A stretch of DNA of 64,000 nt from assembly GCF_032337355.1 (NCBI RefSeq), contig NZ_JAVYAA010000001.1, positions 1,253,905 through 1,317,904 on the forward strand, written 5' to 3'. The stretch is from Paenibacillus suaedae (lineage in GTDB: Bacteria > Bacillota > Bacilli > Paenibacillales > Paenibacillaceae). The first letter of the stretch is position 1, and every line of letters begins with the position of its first letter. A program made the translations under genes and the position numbers. This document shows positions 2,244 to 23,487 of the stretch, in pieces. The notes below the pieces were generated by a model. It was not told the DNA's origin. It worked only from the letters and a program-made list of their open reading frames with translations, and ran no database searches.

Positions 2244-3983
2244 TTATTTCAAAATGATGCGCTCAGACAAGGAATCCCACTTCAATGCTTTGCCAGTCAG
2301 CTTGCTGAATGCGTCAAGATCCACGTAGAGGACATTGCGATCCAATTCTGCTGGAATCGAAACCGCTTTGCCGTTCAATGTAACGGAAGATCCGTCTTGA
2401 ACCTTCAATGTCGCCTTGTCTTTCGTAAATGTAGTCGTCTTCGATGCGCTATCATTCGTTACTTTAATTTGCAGTGCTTGTGCCAGCTTCAGGGCAGGGA
2501 AGAGAACCTTGCCATCACGGCTTACCTTGAATTTCGGATACAAGTGCTTGCTTTGCAGCTCGGCAGTTGCTTTCTTCAGATCCAAGCCTTGCACTTTCGC
2601 GATGCTTGTCGCAATTGCTGTGTTATCAATTTGACCTTTTACATATTCCGTAATTGGACCATACGCCCATACGCCTACATCTACCGCAGAGTGGCCGTGT
2701 CCAGACCAGCCCACCAAGTAGCGCTTCGCCATCACTTGATTGAATGCGCCTTCTTGCTTATAGGAAGAACCGTCGCCTTGCATGATGTATTGAGCTTCTT
2801 CATCGGTGATATCTGTGAAGCCTGTATGCTTCTTGATTAACGCCTTCACTTCGTCAGTGGATGCAGCTTTTGCAAGCTGTGGCCCAAGCAGCTCAGAGGA
2901 GATTTTTTGCTTGTCCCAAGTATCTACATTTAGTTCATAGATGTTGTCACGGGACAGGGAGAAGCCGCCTGTCTCATGATCGGCTGTAATTACGATGGAA
3001 GTGTTGCCGTCCTTCTTCGCGAAATCAAGAGCAACCTTCACTGCTGCATCGAAATCAAGCGTCTCTTGAATCATGGCGCCCAGATCATTCGCGTGGCCTG
3101 CATGGTCGATACGTCCGCCTTCAATCATCATCGTGAAGCCTTTTGGATTCGTAGAGAGAGACTTAATTGCTGCAGCCGTCATGTCTGCAAGGCTTGGAGT
3201 CTCAGGCTTGCGATCAAGCACGTAGTCTACATGGGAATCGTGGAAGAGGCCAAGAACCTTGCCGTTTTTCGATGTTAACGATTGCAGGCCCTTTTTGTCG
3301 TATACAACTTTATAGCCTTTTTTCTCGAAATCAGGAATGATTGTCTTGTCTTCGCGCTTGCCTTTCTCCTGCTTGCTTACGAATTGACGCTTGCCGCCTC
3401 CGAGCAGAACGTCAACTGCGCCTGACTCTAAATATTGGGATGCGATGGCATTTTCATTGTCGCGATTGCGAACATGGGATGCATATACCGCAGGTGTCGC
3501 ATGTGTAATACGAGCTGTCGTTACAAGACCAGTTGACTTGCCAACAGCCTTAGAAGCTTCGATTACGGAAGCGAATGGCTTCGAGATATCTTCATTTGAT
3601 ACGCTGATTGCAGCGTTGTATGTTTTGTTGCCTGTTGCAAATGCAGTACCTGCAGATGCAGAGTCTGTTACTTCACCGGATACGATCGTATCTCCGTCTT
3701 CGCCCTTGTCAGCGAAGGTTGTTGCTTGGCCCACATACAGGCTGTCCATATATAAGGATGGACGCTTCAGCTTGTTCTTGGAGTAGATTCGTGCGGCAGA
3801 TACTTGAGCAGGACCCATGCCGTCACCGATAAGGACGATGAGATTTTTCGAAGTAGGTTCTGGTTTTGCTGCACCCTTAGCGAGTACTGCATCGGATTGC
3901 ATAGCTCCGAATGGCAGCATGAGAAGTGCCAGCGTCGTCACCAGCGACTTGCGTAACATTTTATTCAACCGAAATCCCTCCAA
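2244..3983 (-). CDS. secreted alkaline phosphatase (PhoA family) with C-terminal copper-amine-oxidase-N-like stalk domain
   Basis: Signal peptide, DGMGP motif, active-site TDSASAGTA motif and metal-ligand DHAGH are present. The C-terminal region resembles stalk-domain repeats of other proteins in this window. Confidence 0.8.
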   Translation of the reverse strand: MEGFRLNKMLRKSLVTTLALLMLPFGAMQSDAVLAKGAAKPEPTSKNLIVLIGDGMGPAQVSAARIYSKNKLKRPSLYMDSLYVGQATTFADKGEDGDTIVSGEVTDSASAGTAFATGNKTYNAAISVSNEDISKPFASVIEASKAVGKSTGLVTTARITHATPAVYASHVRNRDNENAIASQYLESGAVDVLLGGGKRQFVSKQEKGKREDKTIIPDFEKKGYKVVYDKKGLQSLTSKNGKVLGLFHDSHVDYVLDRKPETPSLADMTAAAIKSLSTNPKGFTMMIEGGRIDHAGHANDLGAMIQETLDFDAAVKVALDFAKKDGNTSIVITADHETGGFSLSRDNIYELNVDTWDKQKISSELLGPQLAKAASTDEVKALIKKHTGFTDITDEEAQYIMQGDGSSYKQEGAFNQVMAKRYLVGWSGHGHSAVDVGVWAYGPITEYVKGQIDNTAIATSIAKVQGLDLKKATAELQSKHLYPKFKVSRDGKVLFPALKLAQALQIKVTNDSASKTTTFTKDKATLKVQDGSSVTLNGKAVSIPAELDRNVLYVDLDAFSKLTGKALKWDSLSERIILK

Positions 3984-4330
3984 CCAAGTATGTAATTTAC
4001 ATGTTTATTGTAGTCAAGGATTGTTAGCGATTGTGTAAATAAATGTAATTGGAAAATCAAATAGACTTGTATATTTTGTAAATCACCCCTATTGCGATCT
4101 TTGATACGCCTATGTCCGGCCTGAATAGCAGTAGGTTATAAGATTCGCTTTTATGAGTAGATTTAGCAAATGAAATGCTGCATGTGTCGGTATGGGCTGC
4201 TAGTTGTGAGTAATCGAATAGAAATGGGACGTAAGACCTGTAATGATAATCAGGTAGTCCATTGATTGTTTATCGTATAATACCTATACTTGGTAATGAT
4301 TTGGTAAAAAAGCGGGAGGAGAACGACATC

Positions 4331-4939
4331 ATGGAGCGCTTTATAGATCCCCTTGGCCTTCCTTTTGGATTTTATGCGATATTGCGTCGGAACGAGCAGG
4401 TTGCCGTGAAGTGCCCGAAATGCACTGGCTTGGCCTACATCTCTAAAGGGGAGCAGGGAGTCGTAGTGAACTGCACGGCATGCTTCCATCAAGAGAAGGA
4501 ACCGGAAGCTTATCGGTATACAGCCAGCGGAATGTGCACGGTGTGCGAGAGATGGTTCAATGAAGAGGTTACCGATCACAAGCAGCAGACACATAAGGCA
4601 GTGCATATCGCATGCCCGCATTGCTCAGCTGTGAATCAAGTGCCTATACGTAAGATTGCGGCCTATTCAGGCTGCTACTTGGATTTTCGAAATGAACGGG
4701 ACCCGATCTTTCAATTGGAGATGTACTACTTGGATTATTTCCGCGGGAAGCCTGTATGGGCAGCCAATAGAGAGCATCTGAACTATTTGATCAGCTACAT
4801 ATCGGCAGAACTGCGTGAGAAGCCAGCTACTGTCATCAAGCGCACGGCTTCACACTCGCTGCCCAAATATATGAAAGAAGCGAAGAACCGAGAAGCTATC
4901 GTGAAGCTGCTTCATAAGCTGCAGCGTATAGATAGGTAA
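4331..4939 (+). CDS. hypothetical protein with two CxxC...CxxC zinc-ribbon motifs
   Basis: RBS GGGAGGAG sits 9 nt before ATG 4331; the tracked ATG 4262 lacks an RBS. Cys pairs are CPKC/CTAC and CTVC/CPHC. Confidence 0.5.
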   Translation: MERFIDPLGLPFGFYAILRRNEQVAVKCPKCTGLAYISKGEQGVVVNCTACFHQEKEPEAYRYTASGMCTVCERWFNEEVTDHKQQTHKAVHIACPHCSAVNQVPIRKIAAYSGCYLDFRNERDPIFQLEMYYLDYFRGKPVWAANREHLNYLISYISAELREKPATVIKRTASHSLPKYMKEAKNREAIVKLLHKLQRIDR

Positions 4940-6680: not shown

Positions 6681-8045
6681 ATGAAGAAGACAACCATTGC
6701 AACTACCGTAGCATTAGCTCTTGGATTGATGGGCGCACAAGCGTATGCAGCCCCGGCGACACAACCAGTCGACACGAAGGCTGTTGCAACGAACATGGAA
6801 GTGAAAGACTTGGGCACGAATTTCTACGACAAATATGTGAAGCAGTTCGTATATAACGAGAATGGCGATATTGTAGGGATAAAACTTAGCGCTTCTCTGG
6901 ATACAACATGGGTACATAACGTCGGCGCACAAGAGTCGGTTACGATTAACGGCAAAAAAGCGTCCGGACAAGTGATGGTAGATGGAAATCACATCCTCGT
7001 ACCATTCCGTGCGGTAACCGAAGGACTTGGCTACAAGCTCACATGGAATCAGGCAGAGAAATCGTCCACCGCGGTAAAAGGCGACAAGATGGTGACGGCT
7101 ATACTGAACAAAGATGAATACCGTCAAGCGGAGAACATTCTGCATCTTGGAAAAGCAGCATTGCTCAAGGAACAGACGTTGTATGTACCGCTGCAGTTCG
7201 TCTCCAATGTGCTGCATGCAGGTGTGACGATAGATGCCAACGGTCACATCGAGATTGAGAAAGACCAAGATCCACAAGACTCCTTCGATGGCATGCATTG
7301 GGTCATTGTCGTAAATGGCGAAGGCCTTGGCGTGGACAAGAAGGATGTGTACACGACCGAGCACAATGTCATGGTGCCCGTTGAAGAAATCGGCAAGGCG
7401 CTCGGCTACAAAGTCGAGAAGAACGAGAAGACTGGCGCATACGAGTTCTCCCGCGCTGCCAAGTGGATTGCACTGAAGGAAGGCGACACGAAAGCCTCAG
7501 TAGGCAAAATGCTCGTCGAACTGAAGGAAGCAGCAGCTGTAAAGAACGGCAAGCTGTACATGCCGGTTGACTCCCTTGGCGACGTCTTCGGCGTGAAGTT
7601 CGGCATCGACCCGACTGGCGTAATCGGTATTAGTGAAGGAACGGAAGGGAAAGAAGATCCAAACCAAATTCCACAGGATTCCTTCGGCGGCATGCACTGG
7701 GTACTTGTTGTAAACGGTGAAGGCCTCGGCGAGATATCCAAGGAAGTATTCACAACTGAACACAACGTCATGGTGCCAATCGAAGAGATCGGCAAGGCTC
7801 TGGGCTACAAAGTGGAAAAGAACGAGAAGACAGGCGCATACGAGTTCATGCGCGGAGCGAGATGGATTGCGTTGAAAGAAGGCGACAAGAGAGCATCTGT
7901 AGCTAGGATGTTCGTCGAGCTGAAGGAAGCACCAATCGTGAAGAACGGCAAGCTCTTCATGCCACTCGACTCCATGCAAGACGTCTTCGGCGCTAAGTTC
8001 GGCGTAGACCCGACAGGCGTTGTTGGGATTAGCGATAAAGAGTAG
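6681..8045 (+). CDS. secreted protein with copper amine oxidase N-terminal-like (stalk) domains; internal 130-aa tandem duplication
   Basis: RBS GAGGAAG, signal peptide (AQAYAA cleavage), and the motif GKLYMPVDSLGDVFG repeated. Confidence 0.7.
   Translation: MKKTTIATTVALALGLMGAQAYAAPATQPVDTKAVATNMEVKDLGTNFYDKYVKQFVYNENGDIVGIKLSASLDTTWVHNVGAQESVTINGKKASGQVMVDGNHILVPFRAVTEGLGYKLTWNQAEKSSTAVKGDKMVTAILNKDEYRQAENILHLGKAALLKEQTLYVPLQFVSNVLHAGVTIDANGHIEIEKDQDPQDSFDGMHWVIVVNGEGLGVDKKDVYTTEHNVMVPVEEIGKALGYKVEKNEKTGAYEFSRAAKWIALKEGDTKASVGKMLVELKEAAAVKNGKLYMPVDSLGDVFGVKFGIDPTGVIGISEGTEGKEDPNQIPQDSFGGMHWVLVVNGEGLGEISKEVFTTEHNVMVPIEEIGKALGYKVEKNEKTGAYEFMRGARWIALKEGDKRASVARMFVELKEAPIVKNGKLFMPLDSMQDVFGAKFGVDPTGVVGISDKE
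7264..8042 (+). repeat. intragenic tandem duplication (two roughly 390-bp units, about 80% aa identity)
   Basis: Residues DSFDGMHWVIVVNGEGLG...GVIGIS and DSFGGMHWVLVVNGEGLG...GVVGIS are duplicated head-to-tail. Confidence 0.8.
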
Positions 8046-8217: not shown

Positions 8218-8395
8218 GTTGGTACAGGGTATGGGAGCTATTTTAGGGTGAGGAGATAATGATTATTACAGGTGTGTCAAATAAATGGCAACAATTTCAT
8301 GGTAATTTTGTCCTGTAGGTTAGATAATTGGTATTAGGTATTTGCGAAGTATGCAAATATTCTCTAGGTGAAATAACCTTTTACAATAATAACAA

Positions 8396-9670
8396 ATGAA
8401 GAGGCTGATAACATTGCAATTAGAAAATTTCGCAGAAATTCTTAAAGTAATCTTTCCACGAAGTGAAGTTAAACATGATACAGATAAAATTATTTTCGAG
8501 TACAGAGGATTAGAAATTAAAATTGATCAAATTCAAATCTCTGAGTTATCAGATAGACTTTCAATTTTAGAACATAGGGAAAGTACATTGTTGTATTCCG
8601 ATAATTATTACGAAACTCTTGTTAGTTTTGAAGGCAGAAGAATTATGTCTCGATTTGAGAATAATTTTGATGTCGAGGATACTCAAAATAATATTAATTA
8701 TTTAATTGGTAAGGCTTCTGATGAATATATCCTATTTTTATTGCAAGTTCTTCATACAAACGATCTTCTAAGAGAATTTACCAGAAGAACATTTTATCCA
8801 TCACACATGTTGCAGGAACGCTTTGAGAGATCTGGTAGTACTAATGTTTTCGATTTTTTAAGGATTGGTTTAAGAAATTTATATACCTTAAAAATTACAA
8901 CTAGAGATTCAAAAAGCTATGCAGAATTCGAACGCTATAATAATTCATTCTTATTCCACTTGGCGTATAATTTTGATGCTTCAATTGTTGAAATTAAATT
9001 GCTTGAAGATTTTTTGAATTCTCAACGATTAGAACGAATTCGCAGGAATACTGACGAAGTAGATCCTCCTCGAAGAAGATATATTCCTGAACTTGTATAT
9101 CATTATCAAATGGCTGTTGCATCAGAAAGTCCATATCTACAATTTATATCTTACTATCATGTAATTGAGCACTTCTTCGAGAAGATTTATAATGAGGAGT
9201 TAGTCAAAGTTGTACAAGATACCGTTTCTAGTCCAAGCTTTTCACTTAAAAGAGAGAACGATATTAAGAAAGTTATTAGAGTAATTAACAACAAATTAAG
9301 AGCAAGACATGAGGAATATTCAATTAATGAAAGAGAAGCATTAGAGTTAACTTTAATCAAGTATATTGATTCAAATTCACTTAAAGAAAAACTAAAAGAG
9401 TATGATGACTCGTTACTTGATTTCTACCATGATAATGAAGTTGTCTTCTCAGGAGGAGCAACTATTAATTTTGATTCGCCACAAGAAAAAGAAATCCTAA
9501 AAAAAATATCTTCGAGAATTTATTCAACAAGAAATTCAATTGTCCATAGTAAGGAAAATGACAAATTAAAATATACGCCTTTCAAGCATGACAGGTATTT
9601 AATTAAAGAAATACCTTTAGTAAGATTTATTGCTGAAGAAATTATATTATCAAACTCAAAACTTTTGTAG
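8396..9670 (+). CDS. hypothetical protein with C-terminal HEPN-like Rx4H motif (RNSIVH); candidate Abi/defence RNase
   Basis: 424-aa ORF in a low-GC island. A C-terminal R-x4-H motif sits in a predicted helical region. Alternative TTG start at 8414 has RBS AAGAGG. Confidence 0.45.
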   Translation: MKRLITLQLENFAEILKVIFPRSEVKHDTDKIIFEYRGLEIKIDQIQISELSDRLSILEHRESTLLYSDNYYETLVSFEGRRIMSRFENNFDVEDTQNNINYLIGKASDEYILFLLQVLHTNDLLREFTRRTFYPSHMLQERFERSGSTNVFDFLRIGLRNLYTLKITTRDSKSYAEFERYNNSFLFHLAYNFDASIVEIKLLEDFLNSQRLERIRRNTDEVDPPRRRYIPELVYHYQMAVASESPYLQFISYYHVIEHFFEKIYNEELVKVVQDTVSSPSFSLKRENDIKKVIRVINNKLRARHEEYSINEREALELTLIKYIDSNSLKEKLKEYDDSLLDFYHDNEVVFSGGATINFDSPQEKEILKKISSRIYSTRNSIVHSKENDKLKYTPFKHDRYLIKEIPLVRFIAEEIILSNSKLL

Positions 9671-9786
9671 GAGTCTCAAGACGAAGGTACTTCACCAAAC
9701 ACTGTTTTTATGCTGCAAGCCTCACAGCTCTCGATCCATCAGAAGTATTTGCAAGGGAGTTGGGCAAACCGTACACACCCGACGTT

Positions 9787-9817
9787 GTCGGGTGTCGTGA
9801 ACACAAGAACGTTAGGC
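9787..9817 (+). promoter_or_regulatory. conserved leader motif copy 1 (degenerate) upstream of TIR gene
   Basis: gtcgggtgtcgtgaacacaagaacgtta shares the core cgggt-tcgt-ga-aca-agaacgtta with copies at 10880 and 11878. Confidence 0.45.
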
Positions 9818-9848
9818 TCATGCAAAACAACTATGGAGGGAATTAACA

Positions 9849-10742
9849 ATGCCGAGTATTTTTTTGAGTCATACGAGCATAGATAAACCATTTGTTGAGA
9901 AATTAGCAAGGGATTTAAAGAGGTTAGGTGTAAATGTATGGTTTGATAAGTGGGAAATAAAAATAGGTGATTCAATAACTTGGAAGATTGAAGATGGAAT
10001 AAGGGAAAATGAATTTCTTGGTTTAGTGCTATCGCCTGAAGCTTTAAATTCAGAGTGGGTAAAAAGTGAACTGGGAGCAGCGTGGGTTAAGCAAATGCAA
10101 CAAAAAAAGGTTTTTGTGTTACCAATATATTACAGAAAATGTCAGATGCCTTATTTTTTGGCAGACCGTAAATTTGCTGATTTCAGGAATGATTACGAAA
10201 GTGGATTTAATGAGTTAGCTGCTATATTTGGTATAGATGAAACGGAAGCAATAACTCAAGATAACTGGAGGAAATTCACCAAAAACAGAAAAGTGAATTG
10301 GAAACAATATAAGATTAGAGAGTTTGAAGAATTAGTAACAACACTTGTTGATCGAGCAGTGCTACATAATTGGAGTGTTTGGGTGGGTGGAACTTCAAAT
10401 GAATACTCCATCACTCTTTATGCTTACCAGAAACCAGAGAGTAAGTCAATTTCGATTAAGCTAGTAGGTGGGAGTAATGCCTATATGGCAACATTTAAGA
10501 ATGAATCGAACCCCAATAATTTGAAAGTTAGTGATTTTGATATCTATGTTGGAAACTCTATTGACTACTGCGACGAATTTGTTTGGAGAGTTATGGAGGA
10601 CTTTAACAATAATTTCGGTACTCCAACAGAAAAGGCTCACTATTTTACTGAGCGATTTTCCAGAAATGATGAAATCTATGAGGCAACAAAAGATATGTTA
10701 AAGAGGTTTAATTGGTATAAGGGAAATAATATTCTTAAGTGA
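9849..10742 (+). CDS. TIR-domain protein (N-terminal TIR with conserved WxxxE glutamate, C-terminal domain of unknown function)
   Basis: IFLSHTSIDKPFVEKLARDLKRLGVNVWFDKWEI...FLGLVLSPEALNSEWVKSEL matches the bacterial TIR pattern (FISYSH...D...WC..EL). RBS GGAGGG. Confidence 0.8.
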   Translation: MPSIFLSHTSIDKPFVEKLARDLKRLGVNVWFDKWEIKIGDSITWKIEDGIRENEFLGLVLSPEALNSEWVKSELGAAWVKQMQQKKVFVLPIYYRKCQMPYFLADRKFADFRNDYESGFNELAAIFGIDETEAITQDNWRKFTKNRKVNWKQYKIREFEELVTTLVDRAVLHNWSVWVGGTSNEYSITLYAYQKPESKSISIKLVGGSNAYMATFKNESNPNNLKVSDFDIYVGNSIDYCDEFVWRVMEDFNNNFGTPTEKAHYFTERFSRNDEIYEATKDMLKRFNWYKGNNILK

Positions 10743-10879
10743 TTCTAAGAAGGCATGAACATCGGTTAAGACTATATCTACGCTGCGGGTTTTGCACTTA
10801 GTTAGAAGAAGTATTAAGCATAGGAGTGGGTTCAACAACGCCCCTGTGAGAGTCCGTTGGACCAAATCGCTTACGCACC

Positions 10880-10921
10880 TTTAAGCCTCTCGGGTTCGTA
10901 GATACAAGAACGTTATCCGAA
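10880..10921 (+). promoter_or_regulatory. conserved 42-nt leader motif copy 2
   Basis: tttaagcctctcgggttcgtagatacaagaacgttatccgaa is about 93% identical to copy 3 at 11878. Confidence 0.55.
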
Positions 10922-10944
10922 ATAACTGTTAAGGATGAAAAAAC

Positions 10945-11715
10945 ATGAGTGTAAATGCTGAATCATCTGTAATTACAAATGATAATGAAGAAAATAATGA
11001 GCTGAATACTGACTTAATTGGCCTCGATTTTGTTGATTTAAAAATTCAAAAACTAATGGGAGAGAAGATAGCTGACCAAAAACTAACAAATGCATTAAGA
11101 TTTCTTTTCGGAATAATAACAGTTGTAGGAATCCTGATAATATTTCATGTAATTGATACTTTTCTTTATATCGGGATTATCTTAGTCATAATAGGTGGGG
11201 GAATTTTTGGAGCGAGTTTTTCTGATACGAAACAAAGTAAGTTTGACACTGAAATAAGAGCACTTGAGTTGCAGAAACAACGGCTTGAAAAAAAGTCTAC
11301 AAATAACAACACGAGCAGGTATTTTGATAGTTTGGTATCAATTAATCTAAGAAATCTAGAAGAATATTATGATCTAGTCAAGCTTAGTAATAAGAAGTCA
11401 TTCTATTCTTCATTAGTAATGAGTTTTTTTGGAATACTGATCATCTCAGGTGCTCTCACAGTATCATATTTTAGTTCAGAGTTTAAAGATATTACTTATA
11501 TAGTAACAGCTGCAGGAATATTAGTAGAAGTAATATCTGGGTTAATGTTCTTCCTATATAGTAGAACTGTCCTGCAACTTAAAAGTTACCATGACAGTTT
11601 AATCGATGTTCAGAATGTATTACTATCATTTAAGTTAATCGAGGATACAAAAGATGAGCAAATGAGATCTGAGGTAATGAAACAAATGATAGAAAATTTA
11701 ATTAAACGTAAATAA
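10945..11715 (+). CDS. membrane protein with two TM hairpins and central coiled-coil (candidate pore-forming effector partner of the TIR protein; SLATT-like organisation)
   Basis: 256-aa ORF. Two pairs of strongly hydrophobic helices flank a charged coiled-coil segment, with no enzymatic motif. Confidence 0.55.
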   Translation: MSVNAESSVITNDNEENNELNTDLIGLDFVDLKIQKLMGEKIADQKLTNALRFLFGIITVVGILIIFHVIDTFLYIGIILVIIGGGIFGASFSDTKQSKFDTEIRALELQKQRLEKKSTNNNTSRYFDSLVSINLRNLEEYYDLVKLSNKKSFYSSLVMSFFGILIISGALTVSYFSSEFKDITYIVTAAGILVEVISGLMFFLYSRTVLQLKSYHDSLIDVQNVLLSFKLIEDTKDEQMRSEVMKQMIENLIKRK

Positions 11716-11877
11716 TCATAGTAATATTCGTGTAAGACAGTAAATTAGCATAACACAACATCGACAAAGCAAGCGACCCTGTTGCACATTGATCCTCAAA
11801 AAGAAGTAATTGACAGAAAAGCGGAATCAGTTGGCCAATAACTGCGAGCCCAAGTTTCCGACCCGTTCTATATGGTC

Positions 11878-11920
11878 ATTTAAGGCTCTCGGTTTCGTAG
11901 ATACAAAAACGTTATCCGAA
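11878..11920 (+). promoter_or_regulatory. conserved 42-nt leader motif copy 3
   Basis: tttaaggctctcggtttcgtagatacaaaaacgttatccgaa. Confidence 0.55.
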
Positions 11921-11937
11921 TCGAAAGGAATGAAACA

Positions 11938-12378
11938 ATGAAATACTTTATATCAGATGACCATTGGGATATTAATGGTTACTGGGAACAAGTAAAGACT
12001 CTTGAACCAAGAATGAGTAAGAGAGCATTCAAATTTTTCTCCTTACATTCCTTTCACGATGCAAAGGTTGAAAGTTTTTCTATTATCAATACAAGGAATT
12101 CAAGAACAATTAAATACCCGACTAGAATTGAAGCCCTTCTTACACAAGGGAATAGGAGTACTTACAAGATCATTTGGGATAAAGTGATTGGTATACGATT
12201 TGACTATTTAGCTAAGGAAAACTTGAATTGGATCGGTTTGGATGATTGGACGTATGACGAATTGACATTGAATGATGATAACTCTTTAAATCATGAGATT
12301 CAATTATCATCAGGAACATCAATATATATTAATTTTCAAAGAATTGACTACCGGCGGATTCAAAGAAGTTCGACTTAA
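11938..12378 (+). CDS. hypothetical protein (possibly N-terminal part of a frameshifted gene)
   Basis: RBS AAAGGA. It overlaps ORF 12293-12544 in the +1 frame by 28 codons. Confidence 0.45.
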   Translation: MKYFISDDHWDINGYWEQVKTLEPRMSKRAFKFFSLHSFHDAKVESFSIINTRNSRTIKYPTRIEALLTQGNRSTYKIIWDKVIGIRFDYLAKENLNWIGLDDWTYDELTLNDDNSLNHEIQLSSGTSIYINFQRIDYRRIQRSST

Positions 12379-12544
12379 GATAACATCATATTCACACATT
12401 GGACAGACGCCCTCGGGTTCAAGGGAGCTGGAGCTGTGGATACCCTCTAACTGGTTTCATGAATTAGTTAGACGTTATGGGAAATGTATGGAGTTAAAAA
12501 GATCTCAATATATAAAACCTATTATTACTCTTGATGAGTATTAA
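12293..12544 (+). CDS. hypothetical ORF (possible C-terminal part of frameshifted gene); contains internal 4th copy of CTCGGGTTC motif at 12409-12425
   Basis: Opens immediately after an in-frame stop and has no RBS of its own. Confidence 0.3.
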   Translation: MRFNYHQEHQYILIFKELTTGGFKEVRLKITSYSHIGQTPSGSRELELWIPSNWFHELVRRYGKCMELKRSQYIKPIITLDEY

Positions 12545-12634
12545 GTTCAATAAGAAGCGTGTCCATTAATGAAAATAGATATGAATTTATTTGACAGGTA
12601 TGTAGAGGAAACAGACAATCCGAGGTGATATAAA

Positions 12635-13156
12635 ATGCTAAAATTCGAAAACAAAGAATTAGAAATATATGATTTTTGGCTTCCCAAAGAAATAGAAGCT
12701 CAAATTATAAAATGTTTTGTTGGATTACATGATCAATTACTATTCCCTTATTATGCATGTAATTTCGAGTCGTTCCCAGAAGACATTGATTACATAAAAG
12801 CTCGGACAAAGTTTATAAGCCAAGATCCAGTTTTCGAAGATATAACACTTTTAAATCCAAACGATTATATATATTGGTACGAGCCTACTGGATTTGAGGA
12901 TTTAGTAGGTATACTTAATAGGGATTATTTTACTTATAGATGTATTGTTGTTCCCAAAGATGGTTCGTTGAAAGATTGTAGATTTAAATTATTCACTTAT
13001 GAGCATGCAATGTATATGGAAGAAGAAACAAGAGCTTTATATATTGAAGAAAGCAAAGAAAATGATTATGAAAATAATGTTTATCCGCTTATAAGAAAAA
13101 TTCCAATGGATATTACGAATGAAATGAATTTTAAAACAGAAGGTGAAGACTCATAA
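12635..13156 (+). CDS. hypothetical protein; paralog of 56237-56689
   Basis: RBS GAGGTGA. The shared block LFTYEHAMYMEEETRAL aligns with LFAYEHAQYHDEECTAL. Confidence 0.55.
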   Translation: MLKFENKELEIYDFWLPKEIEAQIIKCFVGLHDQLLFPYYACNFESFPEDIDYIKARTKFISQDPVFEDITLLNPNDYIYWYEPTGFEDLVGILNRDYFTYRCIVVPKDGSLKDCRFKLFTYEHAMYMEEETRALYIEESKENDYENNVYPLIRKIPMDITNEMNFKTEGEDS

Positions 13157-13488
13157 AATTACTTTTTGTATGCAGCAGAAATAAATGGAGAAGCTTAACT
13201 GCGGAGAAAATCTTTAATCTATTGAATGAATATGATGTAAGGTCAGCAGGTACTGAAGAGGGTGCTCGGATTAAGGTTACGGGTGGTCATATTGGCTGGG
13301 CAGATATCATTTTTGTGATGGAGAAGAAGCATATAAGAAGATTAAGAGATAAGTATAGTTTTGAGTTGAATGGTAAGAAACTAATATGCTTGGATATTCC
13401 AGATGATTTTACATATATGGATGAAGAACTAATCGAGTTGTTGAAAGCAAGAGTATCCGAATATATAGAAATCCCAGATGAATTTTGA
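13153..13488 (+). CDS. low-molecular-weight protein-tyrosine-phosphatase-like protein (CX5R motif CSRNKWR), no canonical start codon; possible pseudogene
   Basis: The frame is open from 13147 and encodes LLFVCSRNKWRSLTAEKIF. There is no ATG/GTG/TTG before the first tracked ATG at 13222; ATA sits at 13153. Confidence 0.45.
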   Translation: MKLLFVCSRNKWRSLTAEKIFNLLNEYDVRSAGTEEGARIKVTGGHIGWADIIFVMEKKHIRRLRDKYSFELNGKKLICLDIPDDFTYMDEELIELLKARVSEYIEIPDEF

Positions 13489-13754
13489 AAGAAATAGAAG
13501 AAGCCTCAACTGCGAACAAAAAGTGATTCATTGGAGACATTATGGGCATCAAACTTGTTCTTGTTACCGTTGAAGAGAAGGAATTATTAGACTGAATGTT
13601 GATTAACCGCTAGGGACATTTTCAGAAATTTAACATCCTACATTCTTGCATTCTCAATATGAATTTGTCCATAATCGAGTAAAGTGGTTTCAATTGATTG
13701 ATTACACTTTCCGGTATCTTGTCCAATAATATTTCTCTTAATGGAGGTATCCGT

Positions 13755-14747: not shown

Positions 14748-14880
14748 CGGTCAAACGGGTCAATCCTAGTGCGTAACGTTTCCTAACAGAAACCAAGTGC
14801 AGACATGATATGCCGCCATTTTGGTGGCTTATTTGTCGTCTTGAAGAAGTATTGGAGCTCACAACAGATGAATGTTTAGA

Positions 14881-14945: not shown

Positions 14946-15061
14946 TTGAAATATAGACTGGAAAATATGGAAATTACAAGCGATGAGGGAGATAATAAAT
15001 ATAGGAAAGACGCCTTGTTCAATGGGATAAATATCGCGAAAGCATATGAAAGGAGTTCACT

Positions 15062-15835
15062 ATGGAACATGAAGCGTTAGTTGCTCGGTTTCTTCTTTTT
15101 CTGTCGGTTGAAAAGCAGCCTATTAGCTTGGCGTTTCTCAATGAACTTATTCAGAGGCATCAAGAGAGAGTGAGGTGGGAAACGCTGACGAAAATACTCG
15201 ATTGGGAAAAAGGAAATCGAACAGGAAACTACCTCCCTTCTATTGATACGTACATCGAGCGCATCGTGAACAAAGGGATGGGAGGAACATGTTGGACAAA
15301 TGCAATAGGGTTTCATTGGCTGCTATCCCGGCTTGGATTTTCCGTTTCTTATATGTACATGGATCCTGGCCACTTGTGTTTGCGCGTGGATCTTGATCAA
15401 CCTTACTATGTAGATGTCGGGTATTGTGCTCCGCTATTTCAGGCATACCCGCTGTATCAATCTTTTCAAGTGAAAAATGTAAGGGAAGTCTTTACCTATC
15501 GGGTATCTCAGAATGAAATTCAGATTATTCGAAACCCCGGACCTACTAAAAACCTTGATCCCAATCCGATAGCATTAGAAAAAATGACTCCGCTGATTAG
15601 GAATGCGAACAATTGGGAAACATCGCCTATGCTGCAAAACATTCAAATTTTCGGCTACATCAATGGAATTCCGACTTCGTTGAACGATAATGTGCTAAAG
15701 CAATATTTTCATCATGAGAAGGTGGAAAGACATCTAAACCCTGACGAGCTGAGAGAATGGGTTACGGAAAAGTTTCAAATCGATCAGCAAATGTACGAAA
15801 ATGCCTTAAGCATATTCAATGAGAAGAAAACATAA
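15062..15835 (+). CDS. arylamine N-acetyltransferase (NAT family)
   Basis: Catalytic-cysteine context GMGGTCWTNAIGF matches NAT (RGGYCFELN-like). RBS AAAGGAG. Length 257 aa. Confidence 0.75.
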   Translation: MEHEALVARFLLFLSVEKQPISLAFLNELIQRHQERVRWETLTKILDWEKGNRTGNYLPSIDTYIERIVNKGMGGTCWTNAIGFHWLLSRLGFSVSYMYMDPGHLCLRVDLDQPYYVDVGYCAPLFQAYPLYQSFQVKNVREVFTYRVSQNEIQIIRNPGPTKNLDPNPIALEKMTPLIRNANNWETSPMLQNIQIFGYINGIPTSLNDNVLKQYFHHEKVERHLNPDELREWVTEKFQIDQQMYENALSIFNEKKT

Positions 15836-16103
15836 TGTATGGAGCCTCATCGAGCCTGAGTACGAAGTAAAAGGAAAGTTGAGTTGGAGTTGGGCAGTTA
15901 AAGCTCTAAAGGCGGCATGGGATCTGATTCCTGATAGTGTGAAGGTAGCTTTGGGAGGCACAGCAGGTTTTGCTACGCTATTAAGTGTAATTGACAACTT
16001 TACTGGCGCTGTTGAAGATGCTGTCTATGCAGGAGCACTTGCAGTAACAGGGAACGAGACGGTTGCTTGGTGGATCACTAAAGCATTGATGTTATTGCTA
16101 TAA
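15819..16103 (+). CDS. small Trp/Ala/Gly-rich hypothetical protein (bacteriocin-like?), start uncertain
   Basis: No signal peptide. An amphipathic W-rich N-terminus precedes a GG/AG-rich hydrophobic tail. Confidence 0.3.
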   Translation: MRRKHNVWSLIEPEYEVKGKLSWSWAVKALKAAWDLIPDSVKVALGGTAGFATLLSVIDNFTGAVEDAVYAGALAVTGNETVAWWITKALMLLL

Positions 16104-16326: not shown

Positions 16327-16621
16327 TGGGAACAATGCTAAAACAGGGACACCTTCGGGTGTCCTTATTAAATAAGAGATTGATTCATTAATAGGGGGCA
16401 ACTTAGTGTTGATTAACACATGATGGGAGGTTTAATATCAAAGATAATCAAAGTCAAAGACAATAATCAGTTCAGCCTGTAGATGAGTTTCAAGCACACA
16501 GCAGTCTCCTATGTTAAAACAAATAAACCGCCAAATTGGCGGCTTACTATGTTTGCATTGGAATTCTGTTTGGAAACTTTGCGTAAGGAGCCTGCCAGCT
16601 TTCATTTTATGAGAAGCTTGT

Positions 16622-18667: not shown

Positions 18668-19462
18668 TCAGACAGCTTTTTTAAGGGATAATCTTCTGTA
18701 ATCTACTGGACTCATATAGCCTAAGGTTCCATGGATGCGATGTTTGTTGAACCAATTTACGTAGTCATATAGCTCCAATTCTAGGTGATGTAAACTGTGG
18801 AAGTTCATCTGATTAATGAATTCCGTCTTCATAATTTTAAACGTAGCTTCTGCAACTGCGTTATCATAAGGGCACCCCTTCATGCTTAAGGAACGACCGA
18901 TCTTGAACGTAGCAAGTGTCTCATCAATCAACTTGTTCTTAAATTCACTACCGCGATCGGTATGGAATAATTGAATTTGACTTAGATTTCCTTGCACAGA
19001 AGCAAAGGCTCTTGTGACTAAAGCTGCGTCCTTTTTCGGCCCTACACTTGAGCCAATGATCTCTCGATTAAAGAGGTCAACTAATACACAGATGTAGTGC
19101 CATCTGTTTTTGACTTTGACATACGTTAGATCGCTTACAACGACGCGCTTAGCTTCAGATTGCTGGAACTTGCGGTTCAGTTCATTTACCTGTTGCGATT
19201 CGTTGCATGTTGTTTTGTGAGGTTTGTATTGAGCCACGGTGTATGTAGAAACAAGGCCTTGTTCCTTCATAATGCGGCAAATTCGACGTCTTGATACGAT
19301 AAGTCCACGTTCGTGAAGCTTTGCTTTAATCTTTCTTGTACCATATGCATTTCGGTTCTTCTGGAAGATTTCAACGATAAGCTTCGTAATACCATCTTCA
19401 TTGCTGGAGTTTTTTGCTTCATAATAGTACGTACTTCTAGTTATTTGCAGGACGTCGCACAT
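18668..19462 (-). CDS. IS3-family transposase OrfB (DDE integrase core)
   Basis: D in VVSDLTYV, D in FHTDRGSEF, E in DNAVAEATF. Confidence 0.85.
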   Translation of the reverse strand: MCDVLQITRSTYYYEAKNSSNEDGITKLIVEIFQKNRNAYGTRKIKAKLHERGLIVSRRRICRIMKEQGLVSTYTVAQYKPHKTTCNESQQVNELNRKFQQSEAKRVVVSDLTYVKVKNRWHYICVLVDLFNREIIGSSVGPKKDAALVTRAFASVQGNLSQIQLFHTDRGSEFKNKLIDETLATFKIGRSLSMKGCPYDNAVAEATFKIMKTEFINQMNFHSLHHLELELYDYVNWFNKHRIHGTLGYMSPVDYRRLSLKKAV

Positions 19463-19503
19463 TGCTGATACCGAGTATTTGTCGCGATTTTGATGGATGA
19501 CAC

Positions 19504-19785
19504 TTACTTTCGTCCCATGATCAGCGCTGCTTGCTTTAGGATGTCATTCTCCATTTTGAGTCGTTGGTTTTCTTTCCGTAATGCAATAAGTTCATTTTCT
19601 TCTGGAGAGCGGTTGTCCTTCTCTGAGAAGGAACCTGTTTGGTGGGCTTGTTTAATCCAGCGATCCAATGCAGATGCACTCAACTCATACTCACTTACAA
19701 TGTCTGCTCTTGATTTCCCATTCTCGTATAGCTGAACCATCTGTTTCTTGAAATCATCTGTAAATGTTCGTCTTATTCTTGGCAT
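19504..19785 (-). CDS. IS3-family transposase OrfA (HTH)
   Basis: 93-aa HTH/leucine-zipper protein typical of IS3 orfA. Confidence 0.8.
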   Translation of the reverse strand: MPRIRRTFTDDFKKQMVQLYENGKSRADIVSEYELSASALDRWIKQAHQTGSFSEKDNRSPEENELIALRKENQRLKMENDILKQAALIMGRK

Positions 19786-20072: not shown

Positions 20073-21335
20073 TTAAGTAGTAAAGTAAGCGTCCAATTGT
20101 TCAAGTGTGCCTTTATTCATGGAGATATTATTCCCTAAATGATAATTAACTACCATATTTAAACATTTCTTTTCTTCAATTGTATCATTAATTTTAGAAT
20201 ATTCCATTGCACCATCAAGCAAATATGAAATACCCTTTTCAGGTTCGCCCACAGCTAAGTAGTACTCACCCTTAAGTTGCAAATGATCGGCATACCGAGA
20301 ACGTACTAAGGGATTGGTCTGAGTTAAAAATGATGGATCTATACCACCATTTTCAATAAGCCGTCCTGCTTGTTCAAGCTCTTTTCTCTGCAAATATAAT
20401 CGCAGGAGCTGATTAGTTGCAGGAACAACGAAATCACTGCTGCATTTTTCTAAAAATGAAGAGAGCTGCTGAACTGATAAGTCAACTCTTCCTTGTCTTG
20501 CATTAATTAGAGCTTCCATAAGGAGGGTGTTTTCCCGAATGTTTGGGTAATCGAATTGTTTATATTGAATTGAATAAAGCTCTGATTCTTTATATTCGCC
20601 AAGACCAAAATAAGCGTCTCTAAGGACTCCTACTGCATGGACTTTATAAGGACTATCTCCGTGTACAAGGACATTTTTGCAGTGCTCTATACTCTCTTGA
20701 AAGTGCTTTAAGTTAAGAGCATGTATACCCAACTTATAATACAACTCAATCTTCTCATGTTGTGGCAAAAAGTCGACGTAATTTAAAATGTATTTCCCAC
20801 TGTAATATGTTTCCTTCAATTTGCTAAAATCATTTCGCTCAATCAGATATCGTTGGTACAAACCTTTAGATATATAGGGCATTATTCCGTGCGAACGCGA
20901 GTGTTCTATGATGAGGTTATATAAGGATAATTTCATGGAGGTATCTTCAATGGAGTCGATGTGTTTATATAGCTTTTCGGTTAAATCTAAGCTTTCTTCA
21001 TTCGGAGATTCAAGGTATTTAGCTGCGACCTTACGAATTAGTTCAGTGCTGCTCCTTCGTAGGATCGTCGCTTGCAGGATATCGAACAACAAGTCTGACC
21101 TTTTCTCTTTTTCAACGTAATAATCAACCAATGTTTCAAAAGGAATCTGTAATGCAGCAGCCAATGGCTGTACCGTTGAGAAATCTGGTCGTTTTACTTC
21201 ACCGTTCTCTATCCTCGATATCGTACTTTTGTTTATGCCTGACAGCTCTGATAACTGCGTAATCGTTATATTCGATGCAAATCTAGTGTCGTGAATTAGT
21301 TCTCCGATTGTTTTTATGATCGATGCCGTCTTCAA
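20073..21335 (-). CDS. RNPP-family quorum-sensing regulator (NprR-like: N-terminal XRE HTH plus TPR array)
   Basis: HTH ITITQLSELSGINKSTISRIENGEVKRP. 420 aa with TPR-like helical repeats. Confidence 0.7.
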   Translation of the reverse strand: MKTASIIKTIGELIHDTRFASNITITQLSELSGINKSTISRIENGEVKRPDFSTVQPLAAALQIPFETLVDYYVEKEKRSDLLFDILQATILRRSSTELIRKVAAKYLESPNEESLDLTEKLYKHIDSIEDTSMKLSLYNLIIEHSRSHGIMPYISKGLYQRYLIERNDFSKLKETYYSGKYILNYVDFLPQHEKIELYYKLGIHALNLKHFQESIEHCKNVLVHGDSPYKVHAVGVLRDAYFGLGEYKESELYSIQYKQFDYPNIRENTLLMEALINARQGRVDLSVQQLSSFLEKCSSDFVVPATNQLLRLYLQRKELEQAGRLIENGGIDPSFLTQTNPLVRSRYADHLQLKGEYYLAVGEPEKGISYLLDGAMEYSKINDTIEEKKCLNMVVNYHLGNNISMNKGTLEQLDAYFTT

Positions 21336-22010: not shown

Positions 22011-22132
22011 AGGAACGTAGCTCAAATAATGCTCCTGCGATAGCTTTCTGAGAAAAGTAATTATTGAATTTCACAAATAGACGCCTTGTTCATTGGGATG
22101 AATATGGCGAAATCACTTAAAAGGAGCTCACT

Positions 22133-22703
22133 ATGGAACAAGAAGCGTTAGTTACTCGTTTTCTCGATTTTCTGTCGGTTGAAAAGCAACAGATCAGCTT
22201 GACGTTTCTTAATGAACTAATCCAAAAACATCAAGAAAAGAGTGAAATGGGAAACGCTAACGAAAATACTCGATTGGGAAAAAGGAAATCGAACAGGAAA
22301 CTACCTCCCTTCTATTGATACGTACATCGAGCGCATCGTGAACAAAGGGATGGGAGGAACATGCTGGACAAATGCAATAGGGTTTCATTGGCTGATATCC
22401 AAGCTTGGATTTTCCGTTTCTTATATGTACATGGATCAGCATTAGACAAAATGACTCCGCTGATTAGGAATGCGAACAATTGGGATACGTCGCCAATGCT
22501 GCAAAAAATTCAGATCTTCGGCTACATCAATGGAATTCCGACTTCGTTGAAACGATGATGTCCTGAAGCAATATTTTCAGCATGAGAAGGTGGAAAGACA
22601 TCTAACCCCTGACGAACTGAGAGAATGGGTTACTGAAAAGTTTCAAATCGATCAGCAAATGTACGAAAATGCCTTAAGCATATTCAGTAAGAAGAGAACA
22701 TAA
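22133..22703 (+). pseudogene. arylamine N-acetyltransferase pseudogene (decayed duplicate of 15062-15835)
   Basis: Three frame-split ORFs carry near-identical DNA (the GMGGTCWTNAIGF block is identical). There is an internal deletion of about 180 bp plus frameshifts. The upstream 50 bp is also conserved. Confidence 0.8.
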
Positions 22704-23487
22704 TGTATGGAGCCTCATCGAGAAATACATGTTACTAGATAGGAAGCAGATCCTTTATGCTAGCGTGTATTTTTTGTTTGTTATTTTAGATTTGTTTGAA
22801 GGGAAATGGTTGATTAAAAACTGAAATGATTCCCGTAAATTACATGTCAATCTCTAATTATGCAAGAGATAATTGATAGTATACACCGATTGAAACTGCT
22901 ATTTGAAAAAAATAAAATATTTACAGTAAACATTTAGTGTTAAAGTTCTGATACAATCACTGCCCATTTTCTTAGTTATCTGATTTAAGGGTAAACAAGT
23001 TAAAACGGAAGAAATCTTAACATAAAGTGAGCACAACGAGAGCATAACCTGAACACCAAATGACAGTTTATCCGTGTCATTCTCGCTTTAATATTGCAAC
23101 TTTTATTAATTTCTCCACGGTTCTCCTCCTCTTAATAAATTTTGACGACAATGTGGGATATTTCGGGGAATATTGACGACCACATGACGAATTATACGTG
23201 TTACTATGACATTGTGAAAGAGCAGGCGAGATGACACGCACGGCTGCATATGGGCAGCACACGAACCGTGGCGTACCTCATCCCGCTTTTTCTTTTTTTT
23301 ATAATTTCAAACTTTTTCTTAGTTGACGTTTTAATTATTATGACTGATCAATACTTCAGATTGAAAATTTGATTAAGGAATTATTGCAAAAAAATGGTTG
23401 ACGATGGAATTGGTATGCTATATAAGTAAATTAGTAACATTATCTGGATATAATGTGACGAAATTATGATGAGGAGGAAATGCAATT

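Follow-up and report, generated by a model that had tools for sequence, protein, structure and literature searches.

An attC-like repeat and a putative decayed cassette array in Paenibacillus suaedae, with related integrase-linked arrays in other Paenibacillaceae

A low-GC row of genes behind a repeated element

The stretch of DNA analyzed here (the window) comprises 64,000 nucleotides (nt) of Paenibacillus suaedae (NCBI RefSeq assembly GCF_032337355.1, contig NZ_JAVYAA010000001.1, positions 1,253,905 to 1,317,904 of the forward strand). Between 8.4 and 13.2 kb it displays a GC content of 29–37%, compared to about 50% in the host surroundings, and harbors a row of co-oriented open reading frames (ORFs), three of which are preceded by copies of a motif that a preliminary description had reported as a conserved leader of about 42 nt in front of unrelated genes. 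Comparison with other genomes revealed that this motif comprises the L' box, the spacer, and the R' GTTA of an attC-like site, followed by the opening nucleotides of the cassette downstream. The motif thus being the 3' end of such a site, region 8367–13510 very probably represents a small, decayed, integrase-less cassette array of an integron-like system native to the Paenibacillaceae (Table 1). For the window, the cassette reading accounts for the fact that unrelated low-GC genes, including one for a TIR-domain protein, are lined up behind a shared sequence.

The two 42-mers (10880–10921 and 11879–11920) share the 93% identity ascribed to them, the second one starting one nucleotide later than the 11878 given before, and the first one comprises the 3' end of element 2 and 6 nt of cassette 3. 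Their 33-nt core was found at these two sites in the 64 kb (0 expected). The 12-mer ACAARAACGTTA is located at 9803, 10904, and 11903 on the + strand, each time 5' of an ORF, with a one-mismatch match at 50139; these four matches in the window compare to 0.75 expected, a number of four being reached in 0 of 100 shuffles. The distance of 20–25 nt to the start codon stated in the preliminary description was roughly right, the measured gaps being 23 nt (10921 to ATG 10945), 17 nt (11920 to ATG 11938), and 34 nt (9814 to ATG 9849), i.e., 17–34 nt. The intergenic rest, on the other hand, is not dissimilar as had been supposed, since a covariance model derived from other genomes aligns three whole intergenic regions of the window end to end. 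A fourth partial copy does exist, but it is defined by the layout TAAC...ATATTCA...TGAAT...GACGTTA and not by the core gccctcgggttcaaggg proposed for it. ORF 12293–12544 (83 aa), in which this core had been placed, runs from the last part of the 146-aa ORF across element 4 into the first part of cassette 5 and is probably not a gene.

A MAFFT alignment of the four intergenic regions of the window was poor, and RNAalifold applied to a MAFFT alignment resulted in the L stem only. A structure-guided covariance model was needed. Model R1 (154 positions, 46 pairs) was built from 24 elements of other genomes only, and a second model, R2, from a gap-free 90-nt subtype of the element. Apart from the four copies listed in Table 1, neither model revealed a further copy in the window at E≤0.05, and no element was found after cassette 5 with R1 or R2. 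The junctions between an element and the next cassette read GTTAGGC (9811), GTTATCC (10912 and 11911), and GTTATGG (12474).

Table 1. Features of the putative cassette array in the window and array-linked integrase genes in related loci (L numbers denote loci fetched from other genomes)
Feature	Position	Strand	Description
Possible attI-like remnant and first junction	8340–8366	+	Tentative; ends in GTATTTGCGAAGTATGCAAATATTCTCTA at the junction, TCTA in place of GTTA
Cassette 1	8367–9696	+	ORF 8396–9670, 424 aa; weak DzbB/MauJ-like matches (Pfam, PADLOC)
Element 1	9697–9814	+	attC-like, internal deletion (P5–P7 region shortened), ends ...CGTGAACACAAGAACGTTA; R1 42.5 bits, E 3.6e-10, full model span
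Cassette 2	9815–10766	+	ORF 9849–10742, 297 aa, TIR-domain protein
Element 2	10767–10915	+	Best-preserved copy; L boxes of the TATCTACG/CGTAGATA variant; R1 65.4 bits, E 1.3e-16; nhmmer E 1e-15
Cassette 3	10916–11750	+	ORF 10945–11715, 256 aa, two-transmembrane; CyanoTRADDas_TM at 3.2e-9
Element 3	11751–11914	+	5' half decayed; second 42-mer is its 3' end; R1 37.4 bits, E 9.5e-9
Cassette 4	11915–12380	+	ORF 11938–12378, 146 aa, no family
Element 4	12381–12477	+	Decayed copy of the short 90-nt cloverleaf subtype; R2 16.7 bits, E ~0.02, top R2 match in the window, full model span; R1 gives the same ends
Cassette 5	12478–13135 (end approximate)	+	ORF 12635–13156, 173 aa; begins with TGGGAAAT after GTTA; terminal element lost
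Cassette 6 remnant	13136–13510	+	Low-molecular-weight (LMW) phosphatase-like ORF, CSRNKWRS motif, stop at 13488; junction elements deleted on both sides
Array-linked integrase gene, intact/full-length	L054, L113, L079
Array-linked integrase gene, cut by locus edge	L083, L085
Paenibacillus polymyxa CP042272 integrase	L120 10001–11140

Several cassettes of the window could be linked to features of related arrays. The start flank of cassette 1, GGTGAAATAACCTT (8367), pairs with its end flank AAGGTACTTCACC (9679–9696), a pairing matched by about 0.1% of 2000 shuffled end flanks, and begins directly after the tentative attI-like remnant, which is similar to the attI junctions TTCGCAAATAAGACGTTA (L027) and TTCGTAAATAAGACGTTA (L120). 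For cassette 3, flank pairing amounts to 10 of 18 positions (shuffle fraction 0.03). The protein of cassette 2 matched TIR_2 at 3.9e-29 and is related by PADLOC to PDC-S66 / ThsB-type TIR proteins; its cassette shows 75% nt and 79% aa identity to one in an array of P. alvei TS-15 (L047 5204–4217), where the flank pairing is intact. Likewise, the LMW-phosphatase-like sequence at 13153–13478 is 75–76% identical to cassettes in two other arrays (L013 3970–4301 and L101 1347–1022), and the first c. 55 nt of element 4 are similar by eye to 90-nt elements of P. polymyxa. As judged from the PADLOC matches of cassettes 1 and 2, a defence role for some of the window cassettes is plausible. An exact-match look-up of the TIR and the 146-aa proteins found neither on record.

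No integrase homolog was found in the 64-kb window, and tblastn revealed no integrase remnant upstream of the array, even at E 50. Promoter-like and terminator-like sites between 8000 and 13300 were not more frequent than expected by chance, and none was located inside the elements. Taken together, the array of about six cassettes appears to be old, integrase-less, and partly eroded, and it is probably frozen, given the missing integrase and the deletions in its elements.

Distribution, fold, and flanks of the element in other Paenibacillaceae

A scan with the pattern TCGTRRAYACAARAACGTTA, using one genome per species, matched more than 119 loci, often with many copies per 8 kb, and the matches listed were almost all from Paenibacillus, Cohnella, Fontibacillus, Gorillibacterium, Saccharibacillus, and Brevibacillus. 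In these genomes, the motif terminates a repeat of 90–190 nt with the layout TAAC-ACN-GTATTCACG ... CGTGAATAC-AAGAAC-GTTA. Model R1 detected 532 elements at E≤1e-3 in 100 loci (682 kb) and, at E≤0.01, 92 more in a further 21 sources and 23 more in four loci of the P. polymyxa group, leading to a total of more than 600 elements in the fetched Paenibacillaceae loci with up to 12 copies per 8 kb. Orientation was uniform in 112 of the 113 loci with matches (the window counting as one locus), and 61 loci harbored at least five copies. P. antibioticophila GD11 carried 33 elements within four adjacent 8-kb blocks (L054, L003, L075, and L092). Two loci, L001 (Aegiribacteria) and L109 (a metagenome-assembled genome of the Bacillota), turned out to be chance pattern matches, and neither of two pattern matches in viral contigs contained an element. 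Seven co-oriented elements, the best four with R1 scores of 103–114 bits, were detected on a contig labelled as uncultured archaeon (L038, CAYVFQ010000014.1), which is most likely not archaeal but a mis-binned piece of Paenibacillaceae DNA.

Among 422 full-length elements, 400 begin with TAAC and 408 end with GTTA. An asymmetric internal loop, with ACN facing AAGAAC, lies between the TAAC/GTTA pair and an L stem of 9 bp formed by L'' GTATTCACG and L' CGTGAATAC. This stem in turn closes a multi-branch junction of three to five hairpins. At full size, the junction carries two hairpins, the short P3 and the long P4, as well as a long stem, P5, which ends in two small hairpins, P6 and P7, whereas the 90-nt subtype is a plain cloverleaf with three hairpins of 4–7 bp. 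Folds of single sequences ranged from -50 to -73 kcal/mol. Across 148 distinct aligned sequences, 92.3% of the cells were standard pairs, compared to about 35% with the partners slid by 1–3 columns, and changes on both sides occurred in 38 of the 46 pairs; the observed values were reached in 0 of 500 shuffles. Each of the helices P2–P7 co-varies. P1 (TAAC/GTTA) is paired in 98.6% of the cells, and the wider consensus R'' RYYYAAC / R' GTTRRRY is only loosely followed. Seven of the nine L-box pairs revealed double changes (e.g., TATTCACG/CGTGAATA versus TATCTACG/CGTAGATA), the latter being the compensated variant of GTATTCACG/CGTGAATAC that is also present in element 2 of the window. Wobble pairs were rare: of 6725 cells, 86 were G-T on the top strand and 176 were A-C, i.e., G-T on the bottom strand. 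The bottom strand (reverse complement) was the more stable one in 86 of 108 elements. Such a scarcity of wobbles is unusual for a functional RNA and is in line with a structure that acts as DNA, with a tendency towards the bottom strand. A search against Rfam (4227 families) resulted in nothing relevant at E≤5 in the window region, nor at E≤1 in four intact arrays.

The flanks of the inserts provided further hints on the unit of exchange. In 287 inserts located between two full-length elements, the 14 nt after GTTA and the 14 nt before the next TAAC were complementary at 9.99 of 14 positions, compared to 5.80 when the two flanks of the same element were paired and 5.75 with random pairing. Variable flank positions paired in about 80% of cases versus about 30% in the controls, and positions +6 and +7, located in the R arm, are conserved mismatches (GAAAT opposite ACATC). 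These complementary flanks lie 120–2800 nt of unrelated sequence apart. What follows GTTA is therefore part of the next gene unit, and in an excised circle an R stem of about 18 bp would form again. A cassette duplicated within one genome (97.6% identity) stands behind upstream elements of different subtypes; the homology extends from within ...AGAACGTTA (junction after ...GAACGTTA) and covers the ORF and all of the downstream element, ending right after the GTTA of the latter. Furthermore, the spacer variant CAGGAAC (90-nt class) moves with its own element, and position +1 moves with the next cassette, which would place the crossover within AAC-GTTA. Some cassettes were common to different species.

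With respect to their contents, 245 of 285 cassettes have their longest ORF in the same direction as the elements. The median ORF encodes 160 aa and fills 80% of the insert, with a median of 46 nt separating GTTA and start codon and of 32 nt separating stop codon and TAAC. Domains detected in 121 cassette ORFs included GNAT (9), APH (4), NUDIX (4), DinB_2 (4), HAD (3), chloramphenicol-phosphotransferase-like (2), glyoxalase (2), SIR2_2 (2), and TIR_2 (1) along with many DUFs. The first cassettes of loci L120, L124, L125, and L127 are rich in HEPN_RiboL-PSP, SIR2_2, Mrr_cat, protein kinase, DUF5677, and T5orf172 domains. Sub-threshold matches to BsrG, a type I toxin-antitoxin RNA, were located inside cassettes at L007 1687–1940 and L054 4075–4332 (43–44 bits versus a gathering score of 55, E ~1e-7); such cassettes recall the toxin-antitoxin cassettes stabilizing large integron arrays. 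In Paenibacillus sp. HB172176 (L007), cassettes devoid of an ORF (27–242, 3804–4404, 7168–7482, and 7790–8000) hold tandem repeats of 12, 50, and 22 nt, e.g., 13 copies of TATAAAAACCTG.

Array-linked recombinases and an attI-like site

In at least 11 loci, the first element is directly preceded by a tyrosine recombinase gene encoded on the same strand. Full-length relatives of the enzyme comprise about 380 aa, are common in Paenibacillus, Saccharibacillus, and Gorillibacterium, and bear generic names only. When loci were retrieved independently of the DNA motif via three integrase proteins, elements were found downstream in all seven. In the P. polymyxa group, the integrase is encoded at one chromosomal locus. 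The search of plasmids resulted in no integrase homolog above 45% identity, the top matches listed being all from other phyla. About half of the array-linked integrases seen are damaged, some of them truncated by an element, which suggests a frequent inactivation as reported for chromosomal integrons.

The integrase scored below every curated cut-off, reaching 199–209 bits for XerA (cut-off 220) and 184–194 bits for the integron integrase model TIGR02249 (cut-off 265), the latter match being split with model positions 180–229 skipped. For the P. polymyxa integrase, the best match among solved structures was VchIntI4 (140 bits), residues 108–277 aligning with 9–181 and 294–374 with 240–320, so that 16 residues stand against 58 in IntI4. 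The additional domain specific to IntI (about 35–40 aa around helix I2) is thus missing. XerA, XerC, and XerD are among the top matches as well, archaeal XerA scoring equally well as IntI. In addition, the proteins share a conserved N-terminal extension of about 100 aa (P0056, P0117, P0013, P0028, and P0038) with the motif R-K/R-W-x-P-x-x-K-x-W-x-I/F-P-Y, a region that is absent from IntI and Xer proteins and gave no Pfam match.

Just downstream of the integrase gene, the arrays start at an attI-like junction, ...TTCGTAAATAAGACGTTA. The same form of junction was found in the related loci L027, L039, L054, L113, L120, and L121. The attI region contains the palindrome ATTCACGAAGTTCGTGAAT (L''/L' boxes) and an L'-like box beside the crossover, and it resembles the 3' junction of the element (TTCGTAAATAAGACGTTA versus TTCGTGAATACAAGAACGTTA). 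Loci L124 and L125 harbor an identical integrase, and their DNA is 99.9–100% identical up to ...TTCGTAAATAA(G/T)ACGTTA, after which identity falls to about 27%. Their first cassettes differ, and those of L120 and L127 differ again from both. Judging by the aligned sequences, this breakpoint appears to be the footprint of a site-specific insertion at attI and of recent turnover.

Interpretation and relation to known systems

Based on these data, a cassette would consist of one tightly packed ORF, usually co-oriented, and one element of 90–190 nt. The recombinase is expected to excise cassettes by recombination between two elements and to insert them at attI by recombination between element and attI, with a crossover presumably within AAC-GTTA. 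The element is probably recognized as folded single-stranded DNA, probably as the bottom strand, as in integrons; the folded form is the likely substrate because selection seems to act on pairing within the strand, both between the L boxes and between the cassette-specific flanks. Any expression of the window genes (DzbB-like, TIR, two-transmembrane, and others) would depend on upstream read-through. The junction of cassettes inserted serially at a hotspot, which the preliminary description had offered as one option, is therefore essentially the correct reading of the motif.

Several points weigh against this interpretation. The evidence is all comparative, and no recombination event was observed. 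The window itself contains no integrase, and flank pairing is weak in two of its four cassettes (cassettes 2 and 4, the latter requiring a 1-nt indel). Elsewhere, the array-linked integrase is frameshifted, split, or truncated in L027, L039, L033, L014, L021, and L059. The strand preference comes down to a 2:1 ratio of wobbles and could reflect mutation bias. In DNA folds of both strands, the window copies displayed no significant hairpins (z -2.3 to +0.9); a simple-hairpin fold is uninformative here, however, because these copies are decayed and the true structure is branched. Two cassette pairs shared across species differ through divergence or exchange in the 3' part of the downstream element, so that elements seem to evolve by conversion or other crossovers as well. 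Finally, the element is far more elaborate and internally conserved than any attC, which suggests a further function.

A rival reading, which includes the shared operator or 5' UTR element named in the preliminary description, is a cis-acting RNA (5' untranslated region, riboswitch, ribozyme, or processing signal) or a protein operator controlling cassette expression. The element is indeed located between co-oriented ORFs, on their coding strand, and terminates 17–46 nt before start codons, its structure is strong and co-varying with an interior more conserved than a mere hairpin requires, and, with no terminators between the genes, it would be transcribed. In length and multi-stem co-varying architecture, it also resembles the structured intergenic RNAs of Rfam. 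However, it matches none of these families, top-strand G-U makes up only 1.3% of paired cells with twice as many A-C, the top strand is the less stable one in 86 of 108 elements, and no promoter-like site was located in the elements. Moreover, covariation links the sequence just 3' of the motif to the opposite end of the same cassette and not to its own element, and neither this flank complementarity nor the attI breakpoint or the link to an integrase is explained by an RNA or operator. The wobble and flank pattern points to DNA instead, so that we regard such a primary function as unsupported and quite improbable, while an additional RNA-level effect on expression may exist beside the main role. 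Even less can be said for a dispersed non-autonomous repeat, such as a repetitive extragenic palindrome (REP), a bacterial interspersed mosaic element, or a miniature inverted-repeat transposable element (MITE), piling up in a variable island. High copy number, structure, and intergenic position would fit, as would decayed window copies without an enzyme gene nearby, and the motif is, as the preliminary description had considered in its own disfavor, a fragment of a common repeat. This repeat is not scattered randomly, though, but strictly positional and in one orientation (112 of 113 loci), alternating strictly with single ORFs. Its flanks are inverted complements across the neighboring gene and not target-site duplications, the arrays begin at one integrase-linked site, and the window holds no further copies at E≤0.05, which makes this origin extremely improbable.

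If the arrays were true integrons missed by current detection tools, with attC sites and IntI, one would expect the architecture seen here (integrase, attI, co-oriented array), AAC...GTT ends, R/L box pairing, and an R' half belonging to the next cassette, as well as VchIntI4 as best solved-structure match; some members are even named "site-specific tyrosine recombinase/integron integrase" by NCBI. This name, however, stems from a generic XerA model, the integrase stays under the integron cut-off (184–194 versus 265 bits) with no IntI insert and with a score equal to that of archaeal XerA, it carries the extra N-terminal region of c. 100 aa, and the sites are conserved cloverleaf or multi-branch structures rather than imperfect simple hairpins, so that we consider this unlikely. 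To the same small degree, we allow for a double-stranded site-specific system like Xer/dif or phage att, in which only the 3' junction (L' box, spacer, GTTA, and GAAAT) is functional and the fold is incidental or serves another role. The resemblance of attI to this 3' junction, an enzyme as close to Xer as to IntI, and the near absence of wobbles, which lets both strands pair equally well, would be in line with such a system, whereas the co-variation of L'' and L' and the cassette-specific flank complementarity are unexpected unless intra-strand pairing is selected.

Returning to an integron-like system acting on folded sites, its closest counterpart is the sedentary chromosomal integron. Both display a tyrosine recombinase and attI followed by a long array of mostly single-ORF cassettes in one orientation with short gaps, one folded site per cassette with AAC...GTT ends, R/L box pairing, and the R' half of the next cassette, and sites that vary little within a genome. 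Integrons likewise include integrase pseudogenes and arrays without an integrase, the two systems have part of their cassette genes in common (GNAT, glyoxalase, DinB, NUDIX, toxin, and defence genes), and promoter-like or terminator-like sites between genes are missing, as checked in the window. In contrast, the integrase described here possesses the N-terminal extension of about 100 aa but not the IntI insert and is co-oriented with the cassettes, its site is a conserved cloverleaf or multi-branch structure of 90–190 nt, in which seven helices co-vary, while attC is an imperfect hairpin of 57–141 nt, the conserved mismatches are located in the R arm (+6 and +7), and the hosts belong to the Bacillota. 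Thus, the system lacks two defining features of integrons, the IntI insert and the simple-hairpin attC. With four same-orientation sites in series on the + strand (9697–12477) and no nearby integrase, the window array is comparable to clusters of attC sites lacking integron-integrases (CALIN), which comprise at least two such sites. In integrons of the Treponema denticola type ("inverted" integrase), the integrase is co-oriented with the cassettes, an IntI insert is present, and the attC sites are ordinary hairpins; they are thus alike in the orientation of the integrase but unlike the present system in the insert and the hairpins. Xer-dependent dif modules (pdif, Acinetobacter plasmids) are similarly bounded by sites of a Xer-family recombinase and use a similar recombinase family, but they rely on 28-bp duplex sites and host XerC/XerD, alternate in orientation, and have no dedicated integrase, attI, or fold. 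The present sites do not match a module of this kind, being 90–190 nt long, folded, and in one orientation with a dedicated integrase at the array start, nor do they match a REP or MITE repeat, given their uniform orientation and inverted-complement flanks.

Integrons are regarded as a Gram-negative speciality. In full-text literature searches, which covered part of the journals, no description of integrons or cassette arrays in Paenibacillus, Cohnella, the Paenibacillaceae, or the Bacillota was found. IntegronFinder 2.0 detected one complete integron in the Bacillota, which account for 22% of sequenced genomes (PMC9024848), and recent integron papers treat this phylum as essentially integron-free (PMC9024848). 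An integron-like system therefore appears to be widespread in Paenibacillus and relatives, apparently undescribed so far. Going one step further, we lean towards the view that it represents an unreported, family-wide gene-capture platform of the Paenibacillaceae, integron-like but made of different parts and active in the P. polymyxa group, being either a deep sister of integrons or an independent invention. This platform would combine a Xer-like integrase, devoid of the IntI domain and equipped with a new N-terminal domain, with a conserved cloverleaf or multi-branch site, and would stock defence (TIR, SIR2, HEPN, and DzbB-like), resistance-type (APH, GNAT, chloramphenicol-phosphotransferase-like, and glyoxalase), and toxin genes. 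If this is true, the gene-capture strategy exists, as a dense and apparently active cassette system, in a large Gram-positive family associated with soil, plants, and insects in a form invisible to current detectors, and a second, divergent system, contrasting in its missing IntI insert, its site architecture, and its R-arm mismatches, would be available for asking what folded-DNA recombination requires. It would also be relevant to how integron integrases arose from Xer-like enzymes, offer a large and readily mined library of compact defence, resistance, and toxin cassettes, and provide new parts for synthetic gene shuffling in Gram-positive hosts.

Some further features were detected downstream of the array in the window. 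A segment of about 0.85 kb is duplicated 7 kb apart (15008–15854 and 22079–22722, 84–96% identity) and covers most of an arylamine N-acetyltransferase-like gene (15062–15835), the second copy showing an internal deletion of about 200 nt. Inverted repeats of 65 nt (14772–14836 and 16519–16583, 78% complementary) surround about 1.7 kb including the N-acetyltransferase-like gene, and the segment between them may be mobile or invertible. In the same low-GC island, an IS3-family transposase pair (HTH_Tnp_1 and rve) is encoded at 18668–19785 on the - strand, next to a gene for a 420-aa HTH protein (20073–21335).

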